Assembly (NCBI RefSeq): GCF_000195855.1
Contig: NC_002677.1
Span: 540,001-572,000 of the forward strand
DNA: 32,000 nt
DNA from: Mycobacterium leprae TN
GTDB taxonomy: Bacteria > Actinomycetota > Actinomycetes > Mycobacteriales > Mycobacteriaceae
Direction of reading: 5' to 3'
Shown here: positions 1,490 to 13,364 of the stretch, in pieces
Layout of the letters: the number at the start of each line of letters is the position of its first letter
How positions within the stretch are numbered: position 1 is the stretch's first letter
Made by a program: the position numbers and the translations under genes
The notes under the pieces: model-generated
What the model saw: the letters and a program-made list of their open reading frames with translations, nothing else
Told to the model about the DNA's origin: nothing
Databases searched by the model: none

Positions 1490-2538
1490 CGGGCATGGCT
1501 TCGACGCTGATCCTCCGGCAAGTTCGAGTGAAGCGCTCACGGTGGCAGTAGATGCTGCTGCACTCGGTGCACAGCCAATGACCATGGTAGCTGCGCTCAA
1601 TCGTGCACTGCATGATGTAATGACAGCCGACAACTGGGTGTGCTGTTAGGCGAAGACGTCTCCACCGCGGATGGAGTATTCCGGGGTACCGGGGATTGGC
1701 CGAAACATATTCGGCGAGAAGCGCTGCTTATACACATCGTTTGCCGAGTCAGCGCTGATCGGCATCGCCATCGGACTCACGCTGCGTGGCTTTGACCCGG
1801 TTCCTGAAATCCAGTTCGACGGCTTTTCTTACCCAGTCTTCGATAGGTGGTCAGCCTTCTAGCGAAGTACTGGACCCGTACTCGCAGTGAAGGTGAATAT
1901 GCGGGTCACGGGCCGGATTCCGTCGTTTGGCGTCATCGGTGCAGCCAAACATCGCTCGGACTTTACTGCAATCTATTGGGTGCACACCGCGGTCCTGAAA
2001 GTACTGTTTTCGTCGTCACCCTCTGATGCCTATTGGCTGCTGCGGACACGCGATCGACTGTCCAGACCCTGTGATGTAATTAGAGAACAAACTCCGCTGC
2101 TAGGGTCGCGGAATGGTCAACACCAGCAGGTCAGAACCCTCGATCGGTCAGTTGATGGTGCCCCGGTCCGGCACCGACGTAACCGTCATAACTTATGGAA
2201 GCCGAGTTCAGTACCGTGATATCTCTTGTGTAAGAGACTTAGCAGCAACGTGGTTGGAGTGTCGAAATTATCGATCTCTTGTGACTGACCTCGGTGGATT
2301 TCGATACTATCGCCGCTTCCATCCATCGGGCCGGGTGATGCACGAAGGGCCGCTAAGCCTGGGCTACGGCGCCGGTTTGGCCGCACGCATCTAGTAAGCT
2401 ATGTTTTACGAGCTGCAGGTTCCGGTGTTACTCGCCTGCGATTTTGGCACTCCCTACCCGGCGGCTTCGTTGGAGAGGTGGCTACCGGGTTCCGACCAGC
2501 TGCTGGATTGTGTCGGGCGTGAGTTGGAGCAGTCGTGA
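1490..2538 (+). pseudogene. pdhB: E1 beta subunit pseudogene
   Basis: Segments MTMVAALNRALHDVMTADN, FAESALIGIAIGLTLRGFDPVPEIQFDGFSYPVFD, RIPSFGVIGAAKHRSD, SDAYWLLR and MHEGPLSLGYGAGLAARI are collinear with Rv2496c-type E1 beta. They are broken by multiple stops and frameshifts. Confidence 0.8.
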
Positions 2539-3730
2539 TCGCAACTTTGTTCACCAGCGCGTCAAGCTTTTTCGTGTACACGACCTTGGCTAGGTACTGG
2601 GAGAAGTGACTGTGATGTTTGGAACGTCGATGTCGGCGACTACGTGGAGCTTAACCAGATCCTGTGCACTGTGGGTATTGTGAAGGTTCAGGTTGAAATC
2701 CCCGGTCTTTACGCTGTCCGGATCGTTGTACAGGGCCAGCTTCGAAGGAGATGTACCCAAGGTGGGCGTGGTGTTGGTCCGGATCGACATTGCACCGTCG
2801 AACAAGGCGGCGCGGTCCGCGTCGCTCAATGGTGAGGCCGCGGTACCCGCCCTGGTCGGCTATGGTGTTGGCGCGGACATCGATATCAGACGGCGATCAA
2901 GTCGGCCCCACCCGTGCTTAAGCTCGACAAGCTATCTGTCGGTCGGTTTCGCTTCACTGTAGCGCGGCGCAGGCGAGGGGATCACTCGCGCGGACGTGCT
3001 GGTGGCTGCTTCATGCGTCGGTACCGGTGTTCGACCGGTGCTCGGGGTGCGCTAAGATGGTGGAGAAGATGGCGCTGTCCCCACAAGGAAATCCTGGAAG
3101 CAAAAGTCAGTGTTGAAGCTTATGGCACCGAACTCCTGAGGCTGGGCGATCGGTTTCGTTAGCTCGCGTAGGGGACTGACTACGAGGTCACTCCCATTCG
3201 TGCTGACGCAGCTGCTGCGTGTTATTTCCTGTGATCCACAACGCAATTCTTAGCTCTACCTGGTTCGACTCGCCGGATGGGCCATACGTCTACATCCACC
3301 GTGGTGTGCATCTGGGATTCGGTCTCCTGTAAAGCCTGGCTGCTTGCCCAGCCGTACTTGGTCGCCAGCGTGCTACTGGTACCGGTTATTATTGACGCCC
3401 AAATTAAAAATAACCCGCGAACTTGCTTACCGTACAACTGAGTTTATCGCTGGTGCGCGCGCAGTCACTCTGACGCCTTCGGAGCTGTGAGGCTTGACTT
3501 TCATCGTGTTGAACTCTGGGTAGTTGGGCTTGGACGACAGTGTAGCAATGATCAAACATCACGAAGCGGCCATTCTGGGGATCGGAGTAATTAAGCCGCT
3601 TCTGGTGTCCGTAGGAAATGTGCTGGTGGTGTGTACGATCAGTGACTCTGACATGCGTGTTCGATTGGCCAATGGCGCCCAGATGGCGCAATTTCATTTG
3701 CAAGCTAAGCGACCCGATCCAGTAGTCTGA
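2535..3730 (+). pseudogene. pdhC: Dihydrolipoamide acyltransferase E2 pseudogene
   Basis: The lipoyl-domain remnant ([28 protein letters not shown]), the linker ([13 protein letters not shown]) and the catalytic C-terminus (IKHHEAAILGIGVIKP...ANGAQMAQF) are collinear with Rv2495c. They lie in different frames. The putative GTG start overlaps the pdhB stop (GTGA). Confidence 0.8.
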
Positions 3731-4163
3731 GACCGCGCTATTAGAGCTTTAAGTCGCACTTACGTCGTCCCTTCGTTTTCGTTGTCGGCGCTAAACAGAT
3801 TTTCGTTGTGCTAGAAGGTGGGTAGTTCGGTTTTTGTCGTTGTCGAAGGACGCGAGTTAATGACAGGAGTAGGCGGTTCAGGAGGATGACGTCGTTCATT
3901 GGCAGGATGCTGCCAGGTAAGTACCTTGCTGGTCTTGTATTTCAACTTTTGAGCGTAGTGGATACGATGATGGAGACTGGTACCCGTTGTGCTGGAACAG
4001 ATTCTCCCGGATGCCGACAGGGCGTGCAACGCAGTGGTGAGTGCATCATGATTGCGTTGGGCTAAGTTGTGGGGTGTCCCGTTCGATCACGTTTTGTCTG
4101 GGTGCTTGCTTTCGCCATCGCGATGATTGTCGGGCTAGGGGTGTCGCTGATAGTGCGTTGTCG

Positions 4164-5401
4164 CCGGGTGTGGGGATCGTGTTGCCTGGTCGCGGTAGTG
4201 CCGGGTGGATACCGTCGCGGGGTTGAATAAGATGGTCCCGTTGGCGCTGATGGGGGTCGCCACCGCCCGGTGAGGTTGGTGAACCAGCGTCGTACGTAGA
4301 CCCATCTCCGACGGTGGCTGTGTTGTTGTCAGTGAACGATCCGCCACCACATGAGTTTACGCAGAAGGTTCAATGTATGCTTGGCGACGGTATGTCGGAA
4401 GAGGGGTCTTGGTCTCGGATAGGTGCAATCCCATTAGTTCGAGCGCCCAAGTGATGTCTTTGCGTAGTGTTTCGATGTGGCTTTGGGATCTTTTGACCAG
4501 CACTACAAAATCGTCCGCGTAACCAACTAGGCGCCAGTTCGGCAGTCCTTTCCAGCCACGGCGTCGGCGTACTGGTCAACCTTGGTTGCCGCGGTTTCCG
4601 CGGCATATGTAGGTGCTTATCGAGTACTGCCGACGCTATGTTGGCCAGCAGCGGGACCAAGAGGCTGTCTTGCGGCGTGCTGATATGGGTGTTCTCGTAG
4701 TTCGCCGAGTTCACTGAGGATCCTGACCTTGAGGAACGACTTGACCAGCCGCAGCACCCGCTTGTCTTTGATCCGCTGGAGCACCTGGTCTATTGGGGTC
4801 GGGTGGTCTACGTGGTCAAAGTACGTCTCAAATATCTGTGTCTAACACTCATCGGTATTCCTGGGTGGCCAACAGATGGATCTCGGCGATGGCGTCGTGT
4901 GTGCGCTGGGCGGGCCGAAACCCGCAGGAAAATGGCTTGAAGTCGGTCTCGAAGATGGTTTCTAGCAACAGTTTTAGCGTCACCTGGAAGACGACATGGT
5001 CGGCCACCGTGGGAATCTCCAGCAACAGCAACTTGCCCGACCTGCTTGATTTGGGGATCTTGTGTATCCTGCACCGGTTGAGGTTGGAACTGCTCACTTT
5101 TGAGCGGTATGCGTAGCCCTCCTAGGAACATCGGTACTTCACCTTGGAGTTGATGCGGGTGTCCACAGTCAGCCCGTTCGATCTTGCTGTTGTACGGGCA
5201 CTCGGGTTGGTTGCTACCCGATCAATGCCACCACCAAGGTGACTGGGTCGGAGACGGAATTGAACAGATCATCGAACCGGTGGCCGGGATCGGCTGTCGC
5301 CCATCGGTGACGTTTGACCTGTATTTCCGATCCTTACCGCTAGGGTCCATCAGGTCCTGCTTGCACAGAGCACCACCATTCAGCGGCGCATCATCCGGCA
5401 T
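4164..5401 (-). pseudogene. Group II intron-type reverse transcriptase/maturase pseudogene
   Basis: RT blocks lie in shifting frames: FDDLFNSVSDPVTLVVAL, IHKIPKSSRSGKLLLLEIPTVADHVV, FKPFSCGFRPAQRTHDAIAEIH, TPQDSLLVPLLANIA and RLVGYADDFVVLV. The YADD motif is at 4510-4521. The C-terminal part reads HTLNLLRKLMWWRIV...RWFTNLTGRW...ILFNPA...GNTIPTP. An internal deletion of about 110 codons lies near 4390-4400. Confidence 0.75.
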
Positions 5402-5951
5402 GATAACCTCCTAATGCCTTTGCGAATTCGCTGCTCCTTGATCATTAGTCGCCTTTTCCGACCTCGGACTACTATTACTACGGTGGTTTACTACGGTGGT
5501 TCTGTTCTATTCCGAACCGGTCGGTCGACGGCGCTCCTAGCCCAGCACTGTGCTGGATATGCGGCATTAAGCCGGGAACGGCGTAGTTCTCGTGTTCACG
5601 TGTTGATCGCTTGACGAAGTAGGCACCCAATTTTGCCCCTAGGACATCGCCTGGCGACAACCAGCAGCACGTCACCACGGTCTTCTAATCAACGAGGACA
5701 AATCTACGAGGAATGCCCTACGACCTTAAGGCAAGTAGGTGCGCATCGCCTCCGACTCCTATCCGCTCAGATTTGAGCCGAAACACCATCATAGGGGATA
5801 GGGACATATTAACGCCGGCTTCTTCCGTATGTCTTTCCGTTTCGCTCACCGGACCCGACCCATCTGGGGTACTAAAATGTTCCAGCTTTGCCAGGGCCGC
5901 CTGCCGCTCTCCCCGATATCTTCCCGGACCAGGCTGCCCTCAGTGTCGCAG
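4164..5951 (-). mobile_element. Decayed group II intron (5' ribozyme leader plus intron-encoded RT; 3' domains apparently deleted)
   Basis: A roughly 550-nt non-coding leader (5402-5951, minus strand) begins CTGCGACACTGAGGGCAGCC. This is close to the canonical GUGCG...GAUAGGG intron 5' end. The leader also contains GGAAAGACATACGGAAGAAG, similar to a conserved domain I element as I recall it from Ll.LtrB. AGGAGG lies 5-6 nt before the RT ATG at 5401, a DIVa-like arrangement. Confidence 0.6.
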
Positions 5952-6684
5952 TACTGCTGCGACAAAACTACCGTGCAGGTCTTTTACCTCCAGTCGACCA
6001 ACAAACACTTCACGACACACATACGCATCGGTATAGCTGCCATCTGGGTTAAGGCAGTCAGCGGCGAGTGATTGGCCAGCATGGCCAGCTGGTCTGGACG
6101 AAACTTGGTGGTCAGAGCTGCCACTGTGTCTCGGATTGCTAGTGAGTTTCGATGTCAACAGAACTGGGCGGCCGGCAAAAGAAGTTGCTGATCACCTGCA
6201 TGTGGTCGGTATCGATGCACTTGTCGCTTTGGGCCGTGGCGGTAGCGGTCAACAGCGGTGGTAACGGTTGACCGGTCAATGTGTGCCGTTCACCGAGATC
6301 GGCAGCCTCGGCCACCCGCCGGTTGGCCCCGTCGCCAGTGATGTGCAGTCGGCTCGCCAACGCTGTGGGCAGTATGCCGCCCAAGCTTTTCGGAGTCGGA
6401 CTGCTCCGCGATCTGATTGATTCAACTCACGTTCAACGGTAGTTAGCTGGCGGCATGCCGTTGAGTACGAGTTGCAACAGGGCCAACCGTCCCCGCGTGA
6501 TCAATGCGTCAAGCCAGAGCTCTGTCAGCCGCGATATCGTGCCATCAAGCATAGCAAAGCCGCTGCCATTGCCTCCCGATTAAGAACGTCGCAACCTACA
6601 CCGCTAAACTAGCTCAGTACACCGACCGAAAACCCGCTTCTAAGCTATTGAAAACGCTGTGAAAAAAGTGATTAAAGTCTGGTG

Positions 6685-7250
6685 TTATCTGTGTTGTGCT
6701 ACGGCTAATCGCGCGACGAATTCCGGCGATTGGACCAATTTCACCTGCGATCCAAGTTTTAAGCGCTTAGCAGTTCGTTTTGTTCGTTGTTGAACGCCGC
6801 ACCGACGGTATAGTTGGCCGTGCTTAGCGCCAAACCTGGGCCCACGGTGGATTCGATATCGAAATGCATGTCGCAGAACAAAGCCGCCTGAGTGACCTAA
6901 GATCCCACCATAAGGTGCAAGCATCTAGCTTGCACCTTATGGTGGGATGCAGTCCCCGTTTCTGGAATGGGATGTTGAACAGCGCGGCTGGCTTCGTGAT
7001 GCGTACGTCGGCGGCCAGTGCCAGGTTCACAGGTCTGCCGCCGACGGCTGCGCCATTGACAGTGACGATGGTGGGCAGCAGACTGCAATTGCCGACCGCC
7101 ATGAAGCCGTAGTAGAGCCACAGCAGTCCGGGTGCGATCCTCGGCGATCAATCCCAGCGCCTAGGGCGCTGAGTTCGCACTTACCGGACGCCACCGCCAC
7201 TACTCTGGTCGGCACTGCTTTGCATCACTGCCGACGAATACCTCTTCTCG
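6685..7250 (-). pseudogene. Enoyl-CoA hydratase (crotonase family) pseudogene, truncated at both ends
   Basis: Crotonase blocks [58 protein letters not shown] and [12 protein letters not shown] are present, interrupted by frameshifts and by the 47-nt palindrome. Confidence 0.65.
6902..6948. repeat. Perfect palindrome: 21-nt arms, 5-nt spacer
   Basis: atcccaccataaggtgcaagc (6902-6922), atcta, gcttgcaccttatggtgggat (6928-6948). The arms are exact reverse complements. Both-strand ORFs consequently share HHKVQA...LHLMVG. Confidence 0.95.
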
Positions 7251-7254
7251 TATT

Positions 7255-7975
7255 TAGGTTGGCGGCTGTCGTCACCCGACAGCAAGTCAGCACGACGACA
7301 TTCTCGACATCATGTTGTACAGTGCCGATCCCAGCACCGGCGAGCAACTCGACACTGATAATGTTGTTAACCAGATCCTCACGCTGTTAGTCAGCGGCAG
7401 CCAAACATTGGCCAACGCCATCGCGTTCGCCTTGCACTATCTCCTCTCCATCCACCACGACATCGCCGCCCAAACCCGCCGCGAAATCTACCAAAACCGG
7501 TCAGATCGTGGTATCGCCAACGTATCGTATTGTTCGGCGATGTCGTTAAACTGCGATGCTTACGTCGTGTCGTCGACGCAACTTTGCGGCTGTGGTCTGG
7601 TGGTGCCCTGCTACTTGCGCCAGGCTCGCCGTGACACCACTCTCGGAAACGGCACATCTCTTTTCCACAAAGGCCAATGGGTGATCGTCCTGTTAACCGC
7701 GCCGATGCCTGGGGGCCCGATGCTAACGAATTCAACCCCGACCGAGTCTTGCCGGAAATTTGCAGGAAGCTGCCCCGTATACCTATAAATCCTCTTTGGG
7801 ACCGGGCTCCGCACCTGCATCGGTCGCCGATTCGCCCTCCACGAAATGGCGTTGGAGTTGACGATGATCGTGCATCAATACATACTATCTAGAGCCGACC
7901 CGGGTACTGCCTATCGATCTCCGAGGCGTTCACACTTAAAACCGTCGGTCTGCACGGCTACACAGCCGGTAATGT
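7255..7975 (+). pseudogene. Cytochrome P450 pseudogene, C-terminal half only
   Basis: Segments are DILDIMLYSADPSTGEQLDTDNVVNQILTLLVSGSQTLANAIAFALHYLL (I-helix region), WGPDANEFNPDR, and the heme-binding loop FGTGLRTCIGRRFALHEMALELTMIVHQY in a shifted frame. The N-terminal ~250 codons are absent. Confidence 0.75.
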
Positions 7976-11190: not shown

Positions 11191-12240
11191 TCAACAAATT
11201 GACAGCAGCACATAGGTGTTGCGAGCAGCCGCTGTGCCTCTCGCGGTGCCGGTCGAAGCATCCGCTAATTGGTTGGCCACGGGCAACAGTTCGCCCAGCT
11301 GCCTCGGGTACACCTGTTCGCCGGACGCGACTAGCTCCGCGATGTCGTTGGCGTCGCACCAGCGCGACCCGTGCAGGCAGAGGTGTTCCAACTCGGTCCA
11401 CCCCACGGTAGACGGCTCGAACCGCCGGGTGCGGTACACTAAGTAAAATTCCTCGCTATCGATCACAGAACCGTTGAACTCGAAAATTGCGTCGCGTCGC
11501 CAAATAGGTCCGACCATATGTGTCGGGATAACCCGCAGACCGGTTTCTTCTGCCAGCTCCCGCGCTGCGGCTGCTGCTAACCGTTCGCCTGGTCGCACTT
11601 CGCCGCCGACGGTGATCCACCACCTGGGTGCGTGGCCATTGGTAATAGCCGGATCCGAGCCGCATAGCAACAGCACCGCCCCGGTTTCGTCGAGGAGCAC
11701 CACCCGCGCCGAGGTCCGCTGGTTCGGCACACCGTGATCACCGTGCGTCAACGCATGAGGCCGCTCGACGATCTCGAAATAGGTTGGCACCGAAGCGGTG
11801 CCCCGGAGCCGCAAGGTGCGTACCAAGCGTTGTTCGCCCAGTGCGAGGGTGTCGCGGACCGCATCGTTGTGAAATCGACGGGCCAGCAACACGCGGGCTT
11901 CGGCGTCGGCCAACTCGGCGATTAGGGCTGTTGGCAACGACGCCGGATCAACCATCGCCAACGCGGCCGAAAGCTCGTTTTCCGCGTTTTCTCGCGTATG
12001 CCTGGGCGCGCACTCGGCGGCGTCGGCCAGCGCCGCCAACCGCCTACCCGGCGAAGTACCGCTGTACGCGTCGATGGCCACGGCACGCGCCACTACCGCG
12101 CGCCGCGCCAACGCTCCGTCCAGAGCCTGCCACGACAGGTCGTAGCGGACGTGCAATCGGTTCAGCCGATTTGCCGTTTGATATCCCCAGCCGCCCGCCA
12201 ACGTGGCCAGCGCCACTAACAGCACCAAGAGGGTCAGCAT
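11191..12240 (-). CDS. Membrane-anchored LemA-like/Nudix hydrolase domain protein (Rv2609c-like)
   Basis: This is an intact 349-aa ORF. It has an N-terminal TM helix ([15 protein letters not shown]) and a LemA-like segment ([24 protein letters not shown]). The Nudix box is [24 protein letters not shown]. Its ATG shares one base with the pimA stop (TGATG). Confidence 0.9.
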
Positions 12241-13364
12241 CAGCTAGCCACCTGCACCTTGGAACCTGACGTAGCGACCGTTTCGTACACCCGCATGATT
12301 TGGCTGGCCACCACCGACCAGTCATACCGACGAACCGCTTCGGCGCCGGCGGCCACGTAACGCTCCCGCAGGACGTCGTTGCGCAGCAACGCGACAAGCG
12401 CATCGGCCAACGCGGCGCTATCGCCCGCAGGCACTAAATGCCCGACTTCGCCGTCGCGCAGTACGCGGCGAAACGCGTCCAGATCACTCGCCACCACCGG
12501 AGTGCCGGCGGCCATCGCCTCCACCAGGACAATGCCGAAACTCTCGCCGCCGATGTTGGGCGCGCAATAGACGTCGGCGCTGCGCATCGCCGCGGCTTTT
12601 CCGGCGTCATCCACCTGGCCAAGAAAACGGATGTGCTCCACCAATCCGCCTGCCTGGCTCCGCAATTGCTCTTCGTCGCCACGGCCGACGATCAGTAACT
12701 GTACGTCGTCGAAGCATTCCATAACTCCCGGTAGGGCATCAAGCAGGACCGACATGCCTTTGCGTGGCTCGTCGTAGCGGCCGAGGAACAGTACCGTCTT
12801 GCCGAGCCGCGGGTACCCGGCTAGCTGGGGTGCCGAGGACAACGAATCAACGTTCACCCCGTTGGGGATCTCCACCGCATCGGACCCCAGAGCCTCCATT
12901 TGCCAGCGCCGTGCTAAGTCGGATACTGCGATCCGGCCGATGATCTTCTCGTGCCATGGTCGCAGCACGCCTTGGAATACCGACAGCGTCAGTGATTTGG
13001 TGGTGGAGGTATGAAATGTCGCGACGATTGGCCCCTCGGCCACCCGCAGCGCCCACATCGACAGGCTGGGTGCGTTCGGTTCGTGCAGGTGAAGCACGTC
13101 AAAATCGCCGTCCACTAACCAACGCCTGACTCTGCTGTGTACTGCCGGACTGAACTGCAGCCGCGCCACTGAACCGTTGTAGGGAATCGGGATCGCCCTG
13201 CCGGCGGAGACAACATATTCGGGCAGCGAGACATCCGGCGAAGCCGGCGCCAGCACACGGACCTGCTGTCCCCGCGCGCGCATCACCTCGGCCAGTTGCA
13301 AGACGTGCGATTGCACCCCGCCTGGCACATCGAACGAGTATGGACAGATCATCCCGATCCGCAT
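12240..13364 (-). CDS. pimA: GDP-mannose-dependent phosphatidylinositol alpha-mannosyltransferase PimA (GT4)
   Basis: This is an intact 374-aa ORF. MRIGMICPYSFDVPGGVQSHVLQLAEVM... and the GT-B C-terminal ESFGIVLVEAMAAGTPVVASD motif are typical of PimA (Rv2610c). Confidence 0.95.
   Translation of the reverse strand: MRIGMICPYSFDVPGGVQSHVLQLAEVMRARGQQVRVLAPASPDVSLPEYVVSAGRAIPIPYNGSVARLQFSPAVHSRVRRWLVDGDFDVLHLHEPNAPSLSMWALRVAEGPIVATFHTSTTKSLTLSVFQGVLRPWHEKIIGRIAVSDLARRWQMEALGSDAVEIPNGVNVDSLSSAPQLAGYPRLGKTVLFLGRYDEPRKGMSVLLDALPGVMECFDDVQLLIVGRGDEEQLRSQAGGLVEHIRFLGQVDDAGKAAAMRSADVYCAPNIGGESFGIVLVEAMAAGTPVVASDLDAFRRVLRDGEVGHLVPAGDSAALADALVALLRNDVLRERYVAAGAEAVRRYDWSVVASQIMRVYETVATSGSKVQVAS

Follow-up and report, generated by a model that had tools for sequence, protein, structure and literature searches.

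How do a maturase pseudogene and a REP-family pseudogene come to lie next to each other on the same strand of the Mycobacterium leprae genome? We analyzed a stretch of 32,000 nucleotides (nt) from M. leprae TN (NC_002677.1, positions 540,001 to 572,000), referred to here as the window, to which all positions refer unless another sequence is named. The two pseudogenes, ML0444 and ML0445, lie on its minus strand, and our analysis indicates that they very probably belong to one nested structure: a decayed group II intron in sense orientation inside a DUF222 pseudogene of the REP13E12 type.

Blocks typical of a reverse transcriptase (RT) are visible in a three-frame translation of the minus strand. 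Single RT fragments gave only weak matches to RVT_1, and homologue and profile searches were carried out with a stitched pseudo-protein, in which the fragments are joined across the frame changes. This stitched RT has thousands of homologues, the best of which are 488-amino-acid proteins (E 3e-78, 55% identity) that are named group II intron RT/maturase by their sources and carry both RVT_1 and GIIM; nearly all listed homologues have this combination and a few truncated ones have RVT_1 only. The sole Pfam family listed is RVT_1 (56.8 bits, cut-off 29.6), and the sole NCBIfam family is TIGR04416 (E 2.6e-45), whose score of 155 bits lies below the 300-bit equivalog cut-off, a shortfall that we ascribe to decay. 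No family of retron, diversity-generating retroelement (DGR) or defence-associated RT (DRT) was listed for the stitched RT in either database, and an intact relative meets retron, DGR and defence RT families only far under their cut-offs. Together, homologues and profiles show the predicted protein to be of the group II intron RT/maturase family, as an initial annotation of this DNA had proposed; the affinity to non-intron RTs that would have told against that proposal did not appear.

Searches with tblastn, using four intact 488-amino-acid relatives as queries, place amino acids 1-331 at 5401->4405 and amino acids 406-483 at 4400->4165. The reading passes through at least 7 frame changes, plus in-frame stops, so that the frameshift decay seen at the outset is borne out. 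A Shine-Dalgarno sequence AGGAGG (5412-5407), the ATG at 5401 and the YADD motif (4521-4510) lie on the minus strand where they had first been placed, the YADD motif being intact; the equivalent of the RT stop codon is TAT (4152-4150). The internal deletion, first estimated at ~110 codons, measures ~74 (amino acids 332-405) and takes away the last part of RT domain 7 together with half of the GIIM/X domain, namely its first half. In an intact relative (P0001), RVT_1 spans amino acids 114-347 and GIIM 370-443. A profile check of the corrected translation thus returned RVT_1 and failed to detect GIIM, because the 74-codon deletion took the first half of domain X; the distal half of GIIM (amino acids 406-443) and the C-terminal tail still align in the window.

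Upstream of the RT start, a leader of 619 nt (6020-5402) shows ~77% mean column identity with two intact introns, L001 and L003, and over its first 195-200 nt the identity to the three closest relatives (L088-L090) is 75-81%. Alignment to the intact introns sets the intron 5′ end at 6020, where GTGTGTCGTGAAG in the window is aligned with GTGCGCCGTGAGG; the window intron begins GTGTG where intact introns begin GTGCG. The 5′ end had originally been put at 5951 (CTGCGACACTGAGGGCAGCC), with a leader of ~550 nt; that position was rejected, as it falls in a conserved internal segment of domain I ~70 nt into the intron, and the leader lengthens accordingly. A supposed continuation of DUF222, 'YVCREVFVGRLEVKDLHG…', was likewise rejected as translated intron sequence. 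Both L001 and L003 have domains V and VI (DV/DVI), which score 60-63 bits with the Rfam model Intron_gpII and start ~24 nt past the RT stop. Rfam gave no group II match in the whole window at gathering thresholds, nor in 3400-6900 at E<=10. The Rfam D1-D4 models also miss L001 and L003, so this null is uninformative for the 5′ part of the window element. The suggested covariance-model check of the leader therefore has a divided outcome, with no Rfam match on one side and, on the other, homology over all 619 nt to introns that do have DV/DVI. As a separate observation, the leader carries a 12-nt tandem duplication (CCACCGTAGTAA twice, one base apart) just upstream of the RT start (5475-5499, minus strand), which is missing in M. 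lepromatosis and in the intact relatives.

The flanks of the intron were then compared with REP13E12-type genes. The 5′ flank matches Pfam DUF222 (PF02720) at E 2e-10, and its homologues include proteins named 'possible rep13e12 repeat protein' by their sources; tblastn queries, comprising 37 DUF222 proteins as well as Rv1128c-like proteins of full length, gave E-values of 1e-27 to 1e-30. Two uninterrupted genes served to build full-length conceptual host proteins: L084, whose context is of the Rv1128c type, and L085. With these as queries, tblastn places amino acids 12-189 at 6558-6021 and amino acids ~247-324 at 4101-3873 on the same strand, and at the DNA level host homology downstream of the RT extends from 4134 to 3833. 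The insertion point corresponds to …LNPDGxYTDED|RARRRG… of the host family (the bar marks the junction). These alignments show the flanks to be predicted collinear, same-strand parts of one REP13E12-type gene, covering amino acids ~12-189 and ~236-335, and not pieces of different genes. Identity and strand of both parts had been read correctly in the initial annotation, while their limits change: the N-terminal part ends at 6021 instead of ~5955, and the later part spans 4134-3833 instead of ~4100-3735. For the HNH end, no significant homology was found in 3833-3735, where alignment scores lie within the shuffle null; judged by these alignments, the host gene has lost its HNH end. The two genes used to build the host proteins (L084 2501-3855 and L085 2501-3809) belong to different organisms. 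In each, a frameshift close to one and the same G-run, coding for …GLTGGGT…, breaks the gene into two open reading frames (ORFs); this place may be slippery or a hot-spot of mutation.

To ask how the intron came to this position, we considered the pairing of exon-binding sites (EBS) in the intron with intron-binding sites (IBS) in the exon. A genome scan with the RT alignment yielded at least 80 actinobacterial loci, which were used for EBS covariation only; intron ends were located in 48 of them, and intron columns were tested for covariation with the 5′ exon of the same intron. Covariation across the 48 introns singles out two sites, EBS1 with exon positions -7..-1 and EBS2 with exon positions -14..-9. 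In L089, the closest intact Mycobacterium intron, which comes from a metagenome-assembled genome (MAG), EBS1 GTCCGGG and EBS2 GGGTGC pair with their own exon at 13/13 positions. L089 was taken to set the register, and all 63,972 sites of the window served as the fixed-register null. In this register, the window EBS pair with their own exon at 11 of 13 positions (p=0.005); the M. lepromatosis orthologue reaches 12 of 13 (p=0.001), and against the canonical REP13E12 site of L084 the window EBS pair at all 13 (p=4.7e-5). The canonical site reads ACACCG-A-CGAGGAC and the window exon ATACCG-A-TGCGTAT, so that EBS1 makes 5/7 pairs with the present exon and 7/7 with canonical CGAGGAC. A looser score allowing any register gave an unconvincing p~0.09 for the present exon and is superseded by the fixed-register test. 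The complementarity, complete with the canonical site, marks the junction as one of RNA-guided insertion. We conclude that base pairing probably directed the intron to this site and that drift has altered the end of the exon since then, which supports the earlier proposal of retrohoming into the gene.

The 3′ end of the intron was examined by local alignment and with covariance models. Intron homology runs past the TAT through a spacer to ~4130 and host homology resumes at 4134, which puts the intron/host deletion junction at ~4134-4130 and leaves ~16-20 nt of intron spacer between the RT stop-equivalent and the resumed host homology. The initial annotation was right that the 3′ junction is deleted; the 40-60 nt it gave for this spacing are too many. 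It had also failed to find DV/DVI, and these domains are indeed missing: Rfam Intron_gpII finds none in the window, and a lineage-specific covariance model (R1, based on 33 relatives and their DV-DVI tails), which scores 90-135 bits on 11 held-out relatives, reaches at most 7.6 bits in 2500-7500 with filters off, and at irrelevant places. Since intron spacer to ~4130 meets host homology from 4134, a single deletion of ~240 nt would account for the loss of DV and DVI, of the 3′ splice site and of ~46 codons of the host gene. The relic is no longer able to splice or move. The features of the locus are collected in Table 1.

Table 1. Features of the relic intron, its host pseudogene, its second copy and its surroundings (window positions unless another sequence is given).
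Feature	Position	Strand	Basis
5′ part of REP13E12-type DUF222 pseudogene (ML0445/MLBr00445), amino acids ~8-189 of a ~450-amino-acid protein, ending …LNPDGSYTDAY|	6021-6569	-	Pfam, tblastn
IBS2 ATACCG (6034-6029) and IBS1 TGCGTAT (6027-6021) in the 5′ exon	6021-6034	-	EBS pairing
Intron 5′ RNA, domains I-III and start of IV; first bases GTGTG	5402-6020	-	Homology to intact introns
EBS2 TGGTGT	5783-5788	-	Alignment position of L089/L003 EBS2; 6/6 with exon -14..-9
EBS1 GTCCTCG	5693-5699	-	Alignment position of L089 EBS1 GTCCGGG
Group II intron RT/maturase relic, partly annotated as ML0444/MLBr00444	4150-5401	-	tblastn, homologues, profiles
Internal RT deletion point, 74 codons (222 nt), amino acids 332-405	4400-4405	-	tblastn
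Residual intron spacer after RT stop	4130-4149	-	Local alignments to L001 and host gene L085
3′ continuation of host pseudogene, amino acids ~236-335 (…AQRNHDAL…IIVSTTLK…LPMNDVI…), without HNH end	3833-4134	-	tblastn; DNA alignment to L084/L085
Tract 100% identical to copy B, 1179 bp	4404-5582	-	Alignment
Copy B (L211 3820-5063), between MLBr01662 pseudogene and coaD	M. leprae Br4923, FM211192.1 ~2,003,782-2,005,025		Look-up, alignment
2-oxoacid dehydrogenase acyltransferase fragment (pseudogene)	3524-3730	+	E 0.001
Enoyl-CoA hydratase fragment, ML0446	6824-7102	-	E 1.7e-5
Cytochrome P450 fragment (pseudogene)	7312-7788	+	E 1.4e-5

The age of the insertion can be gauged from M. lepromatosis. 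At the syntenic locus of that species (L086), the REP flank, the junction, the leader and the start of the RT recur with 82% identity, and the shared junction makes the insertion older than the species split. Within the 313 nt of the RT that can be compared (5401-5089), M. leprae has 3 frameshifts and M. lepromatosis 4, none of them shared; only a TAG at codon 21 is common to both, and it lies upstream of the conserved Met27, the start used by L090. M. uberis is uninformative on an empty site: its synteny stops at window ~9363, followed by tesB, pdxT, yebC and ruvCAB.

Based on these results we propose the following history. An ORF-containing bacterial group II intron, with an RT lacking an endonuclease domain, would have entered the sense strand of a REP13E12-type DUF222-HNH gene through reverse splicing under RNA guidance, either by retrohoming or by retrotransposition. 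The point of entry separates the codons of …LNPDGxYTDED from those of RARRRG…, and the event is older than the divergence of M. leprae and M. lepromatosis. The element would then have decayed with the rest of the genome, with RT frameshifts and stops that are, in the comparable part, mostly lineage-specific. A 222-nt deletion took the junction of RT domain 7 and domain X. The catalytic DV and the branch-point DVI would have gone in one deletion of ~240 nt, along with the 3′ splice site and ~46 codons from the 3′ exon. The host gene has also lost its HNH end.

Several points weigh against this history. The assignment of the 5′ part to intron RNA is a matter of homology, as no curated D1-D4 model matches the window, L001 or L003. 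The present IBS1 pairs at only 5/7 positions, and the 13/13 match uses paralogue or orthologue sequence of other species and not a reconstructed ancestor. The 3′ junction is gone, and with it the sequence in which exon continuity and the EBS3/IBS3 (or delta-delta′) pairing would show. No intact intron at DED|R was found among the matches listed in the metagenome and genome scans, and the loci listed in the genome scan include none from M. leprae or the rest of the leprosy clade. Finally, the 3′ flank could come from a paralogue, REP13E12 genes being recombination hot-spots (PMC13157036).

This last property also underlies the strongest alternative, which we regard as doubtful although a good deal more credible than the others: that the element arrived here in the form of DNA, when a REP13E12 paralogue carrying the intron was duplicated or acted as donor in gene conversion, and that the copy in the window is one member of a small DNA repeat. 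M. leprae does have two copies. The 107-amino-acid ORF at 4808-5131 was not on record in an exact look-up, and the same kind of look-up with the 59-amino-acid ORF at 5222-5401 led to a second copy near coaD (copy B), 1.46 Mb from the copy in the window (copy A) and 100% identical to it over 1179 bp. Copy B continues with RT amino acids 332-~350, which are lost in the window, and lacks everything upstream of 5582. The identical tract is therefore exactly the homology that both copies retain, ending at the RT deletion point of the window and at the 5′ truncation of copy B. M. lepromatosis also has two copies: FJ924 620926-622909 (1984 bp) has a twin at 923558-925541, listed as 'other' and not as LPMREP in a BLASTN-based repeat table (PMC9248898), and the shared 1984-bp segment includes the REP 5′ flank (Table S3A, PMC9248898). 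Moreover, 13E12 genes recombine frequently in M. tuberculosis (PMC13157036). On the other hand, the coaD locus too is occupied in M. lepromatosis (MLPF_0940-0943); both loci are thus occupied in both species, which makes both copies old. Arrival as DNA would also only move the place of retrohoming, because the EBS/IBS match still demands an RNA-guided insertion at a REP13E12 DED|R site. We infer that retrohoming occurred at this very locus and not in a paralogue later copied as DNA. The identity of A and B, old copies that are identical within M. leprae and 18% diverged between species, would be best explained by recent gene conversion.

A second alternative, that the element is a copy of the dispersed repeat LEPREP, appears very unlikely. 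It draws on the M. lepromatosis genome paper, according to which the LEPREP/LPMREP repeats seem to stem from a pseudogene related to group II intron maturases and go back to the ancestor shared by the leprosy bacilli (PMC9248898); the size is similar to that of this locus. Yet the M. lepromatosis orthologue (620926-622909) is, as noted, listed as 'other', the LPMREP pseudogenes are named 'Possible maturase' where ML0444 is named 'group II intron maturase', and LEPREP/LPMREP has eight copies per genome as against two here. The first ~500 nt of the LPMREP core, the part that was compared, have no significant match in the window. To the extent covered by these partial tests, the element has two copies in M. 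leprae and shows no sign of LEPREP or RLEP membership, and the large dispersed repeat family envisaged in the initial annotation thus shrinks to a pair. The remaining alternative, that the RT of a non-intron retroelement (retron, DGR or Abi/DRT) lies by chance between two DUF222 fragments, can appeal to the missing Rfam intron match and the undetected GIIM but is next to impossible, given that TIGR04416 and RVT_1 are the only families listed, that the listed homologues carry RVT_1 and GIIM (a few RVT_1 only), that the 619 nt upstream are homologous to intact introns with bona fide DV/DVI, and that the loss of GIIM is explained by the 74-codon deletion, copy B still encoding amino acids 332-~350.

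We return to the preferred reading, an RNA-guided insertion, and to what its relatives say about target choice. The intact introns L089 (Mycobacterium sp. MAG DATIOT010000209.1), L090, L001 and L003, whose RTs are 53-56% identical to the relic, interrupt DUF222-HNH genes within the HNH motif, at C-x-x-P-G|C, and yield an in-frame spliced product, e.g. …RGCTRPG|CTVPAAWCQVHH…; L088 has an HNH-like 3′ exon. Relic and intact relatives share the positions of EBS1 and EBS2, the host family, the sense orientation and an RT without an endonuclease domain (RVT_1 and GIIM only in the relatives). The intact introns are ~2.18 kb long with DV/DVI, whereas the relic has other EBS sequences and lies at DED|R, ~165 codons upstream of the HNH site that they occupy. 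A metagenome scan for a DED|intron junction (ACCGAYGARGAYGTGCGCC) gave at least 120 chance coding matches, with no intron among the matches listed. In the wider RT lineage (L004-L083), exon junctions fall at diverse sites, often in transposase-like genes. RmInt1 of Sinorhizobium meliloti is a bacterial group II intron without endonuclease that finds its target through EBS1/EBS2, and such introns tend to occupy repeated or mobile genes; the relic resembles it in having an RT without endonuclease domain and in EBS1/EBS2 targeting. We tentatively suggest, as a composite picture that falls somewhat short of an even chance, that a sublineage of actinobacterial group II introns specialised on DUF222-HNH ('13E12') genes was retargeted at least once inside this family, from HNH C-x-x-P-G|C to the DUF222 motif YTDED|R via EBS1/EBS2, and that its two dead copies in the leprosy bacilli are still homogenised by gene conversion. 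If this were true, recombination between dispersed relics would have been active long after genome decay.

Three observations on the wider lineage stand apart from these comparisons. Its transposase-like exons include, for example, …DEKSQIQALDR… and …RFHLWRNLGEA…. One subgroup starts TTGCG and not GTGCG. On each of two contigs there are two DV/DVI matches (L043 5355-5479 and 7380-7504; L008 480-595 and 2124-2248), a sign that introns of this lineage occur there in tandem or nested one in another.

How much of this is new can be judged from the existing annotation. The M. lepromatosis genome paper (PMC9248898) includes a table of orthologues, in which MLBr00444 is a group II intron maturase (pseudogene; Br4923 544160-545208), MLBr00445 a REP-family protein (pseudogene; Br4923 546036-546573) and MLBr00446 an enoyl-CoA hydratase (pseudogene; Br4923 546697-547141). 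Converted to window coordinates by an offset of ~540,004, the three correspond to the RT, the DUF222 fragment and the enoyl-CoA hydratase fragment: ML0444 is the same DNA as window ~4156-5204 and ML0445 the same as ~6032-6569, and the neighbouring ML0446 matches as well. The locus is therefore largely known, maturase and REP-family pseudogenes having long been part of the M. leprae annotation. As given in that table, ML0444 and ML0445 are two adjacent pseudogenes; it makes no mention of the intron RNA of 619 nt, the precise junction with its EBS/IBS match, the downstream piece of the REP gene (4134-3833), the missing DV/DVI or a further copy. Literature searches on ML0444/ML0445 and on group II introns in combination with REP13E12/DUF222 found no account of the nested arrangement, nor any report in which group II introns target REP13E12.

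Taken by itself, a defunct intron inside a defunct gene serves no function today and adds little. The refinements made here concern its exact anatomy and insertion site, an RNA-guided junction older than the split of M. leprae and M. lepromatosis, and the existence of two copies. What interest remains lies in the apparent specialisation of the sublineage on DUF222-HNH genes and in the homogenisation of the two M. leprae copies, whose identity bears on continued gene conversion in a genome usually called recombinationally quiescent.

The surroundings of the element consist of short broken ORFs only, among them the pseudogene fragments listed in Table 1. In M. lepromatosis, copy A (L086 19432-21125) abuts a TetR pseudogene orthologous to ML0432, from which the M. 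leprae relic is separated by ~11.7 kb (the ML0433-ML0443 interval); this difference in spacing points to a deletion or insertion in one lineage, with a breakpoint inside the RT of the relic. On the other side, M. lepromatosis has ~2.8 kb of extra sequence with a cutinase fragment (L086 16098-18886) between the positions equivalent to window 7247 and 7265. Further along the window, the ORF at 12240-13364 on the minus strand is 100% identical to PimA of M. leprae, 97% to that of M. lepromatosis and 93% to that of M. uberis.

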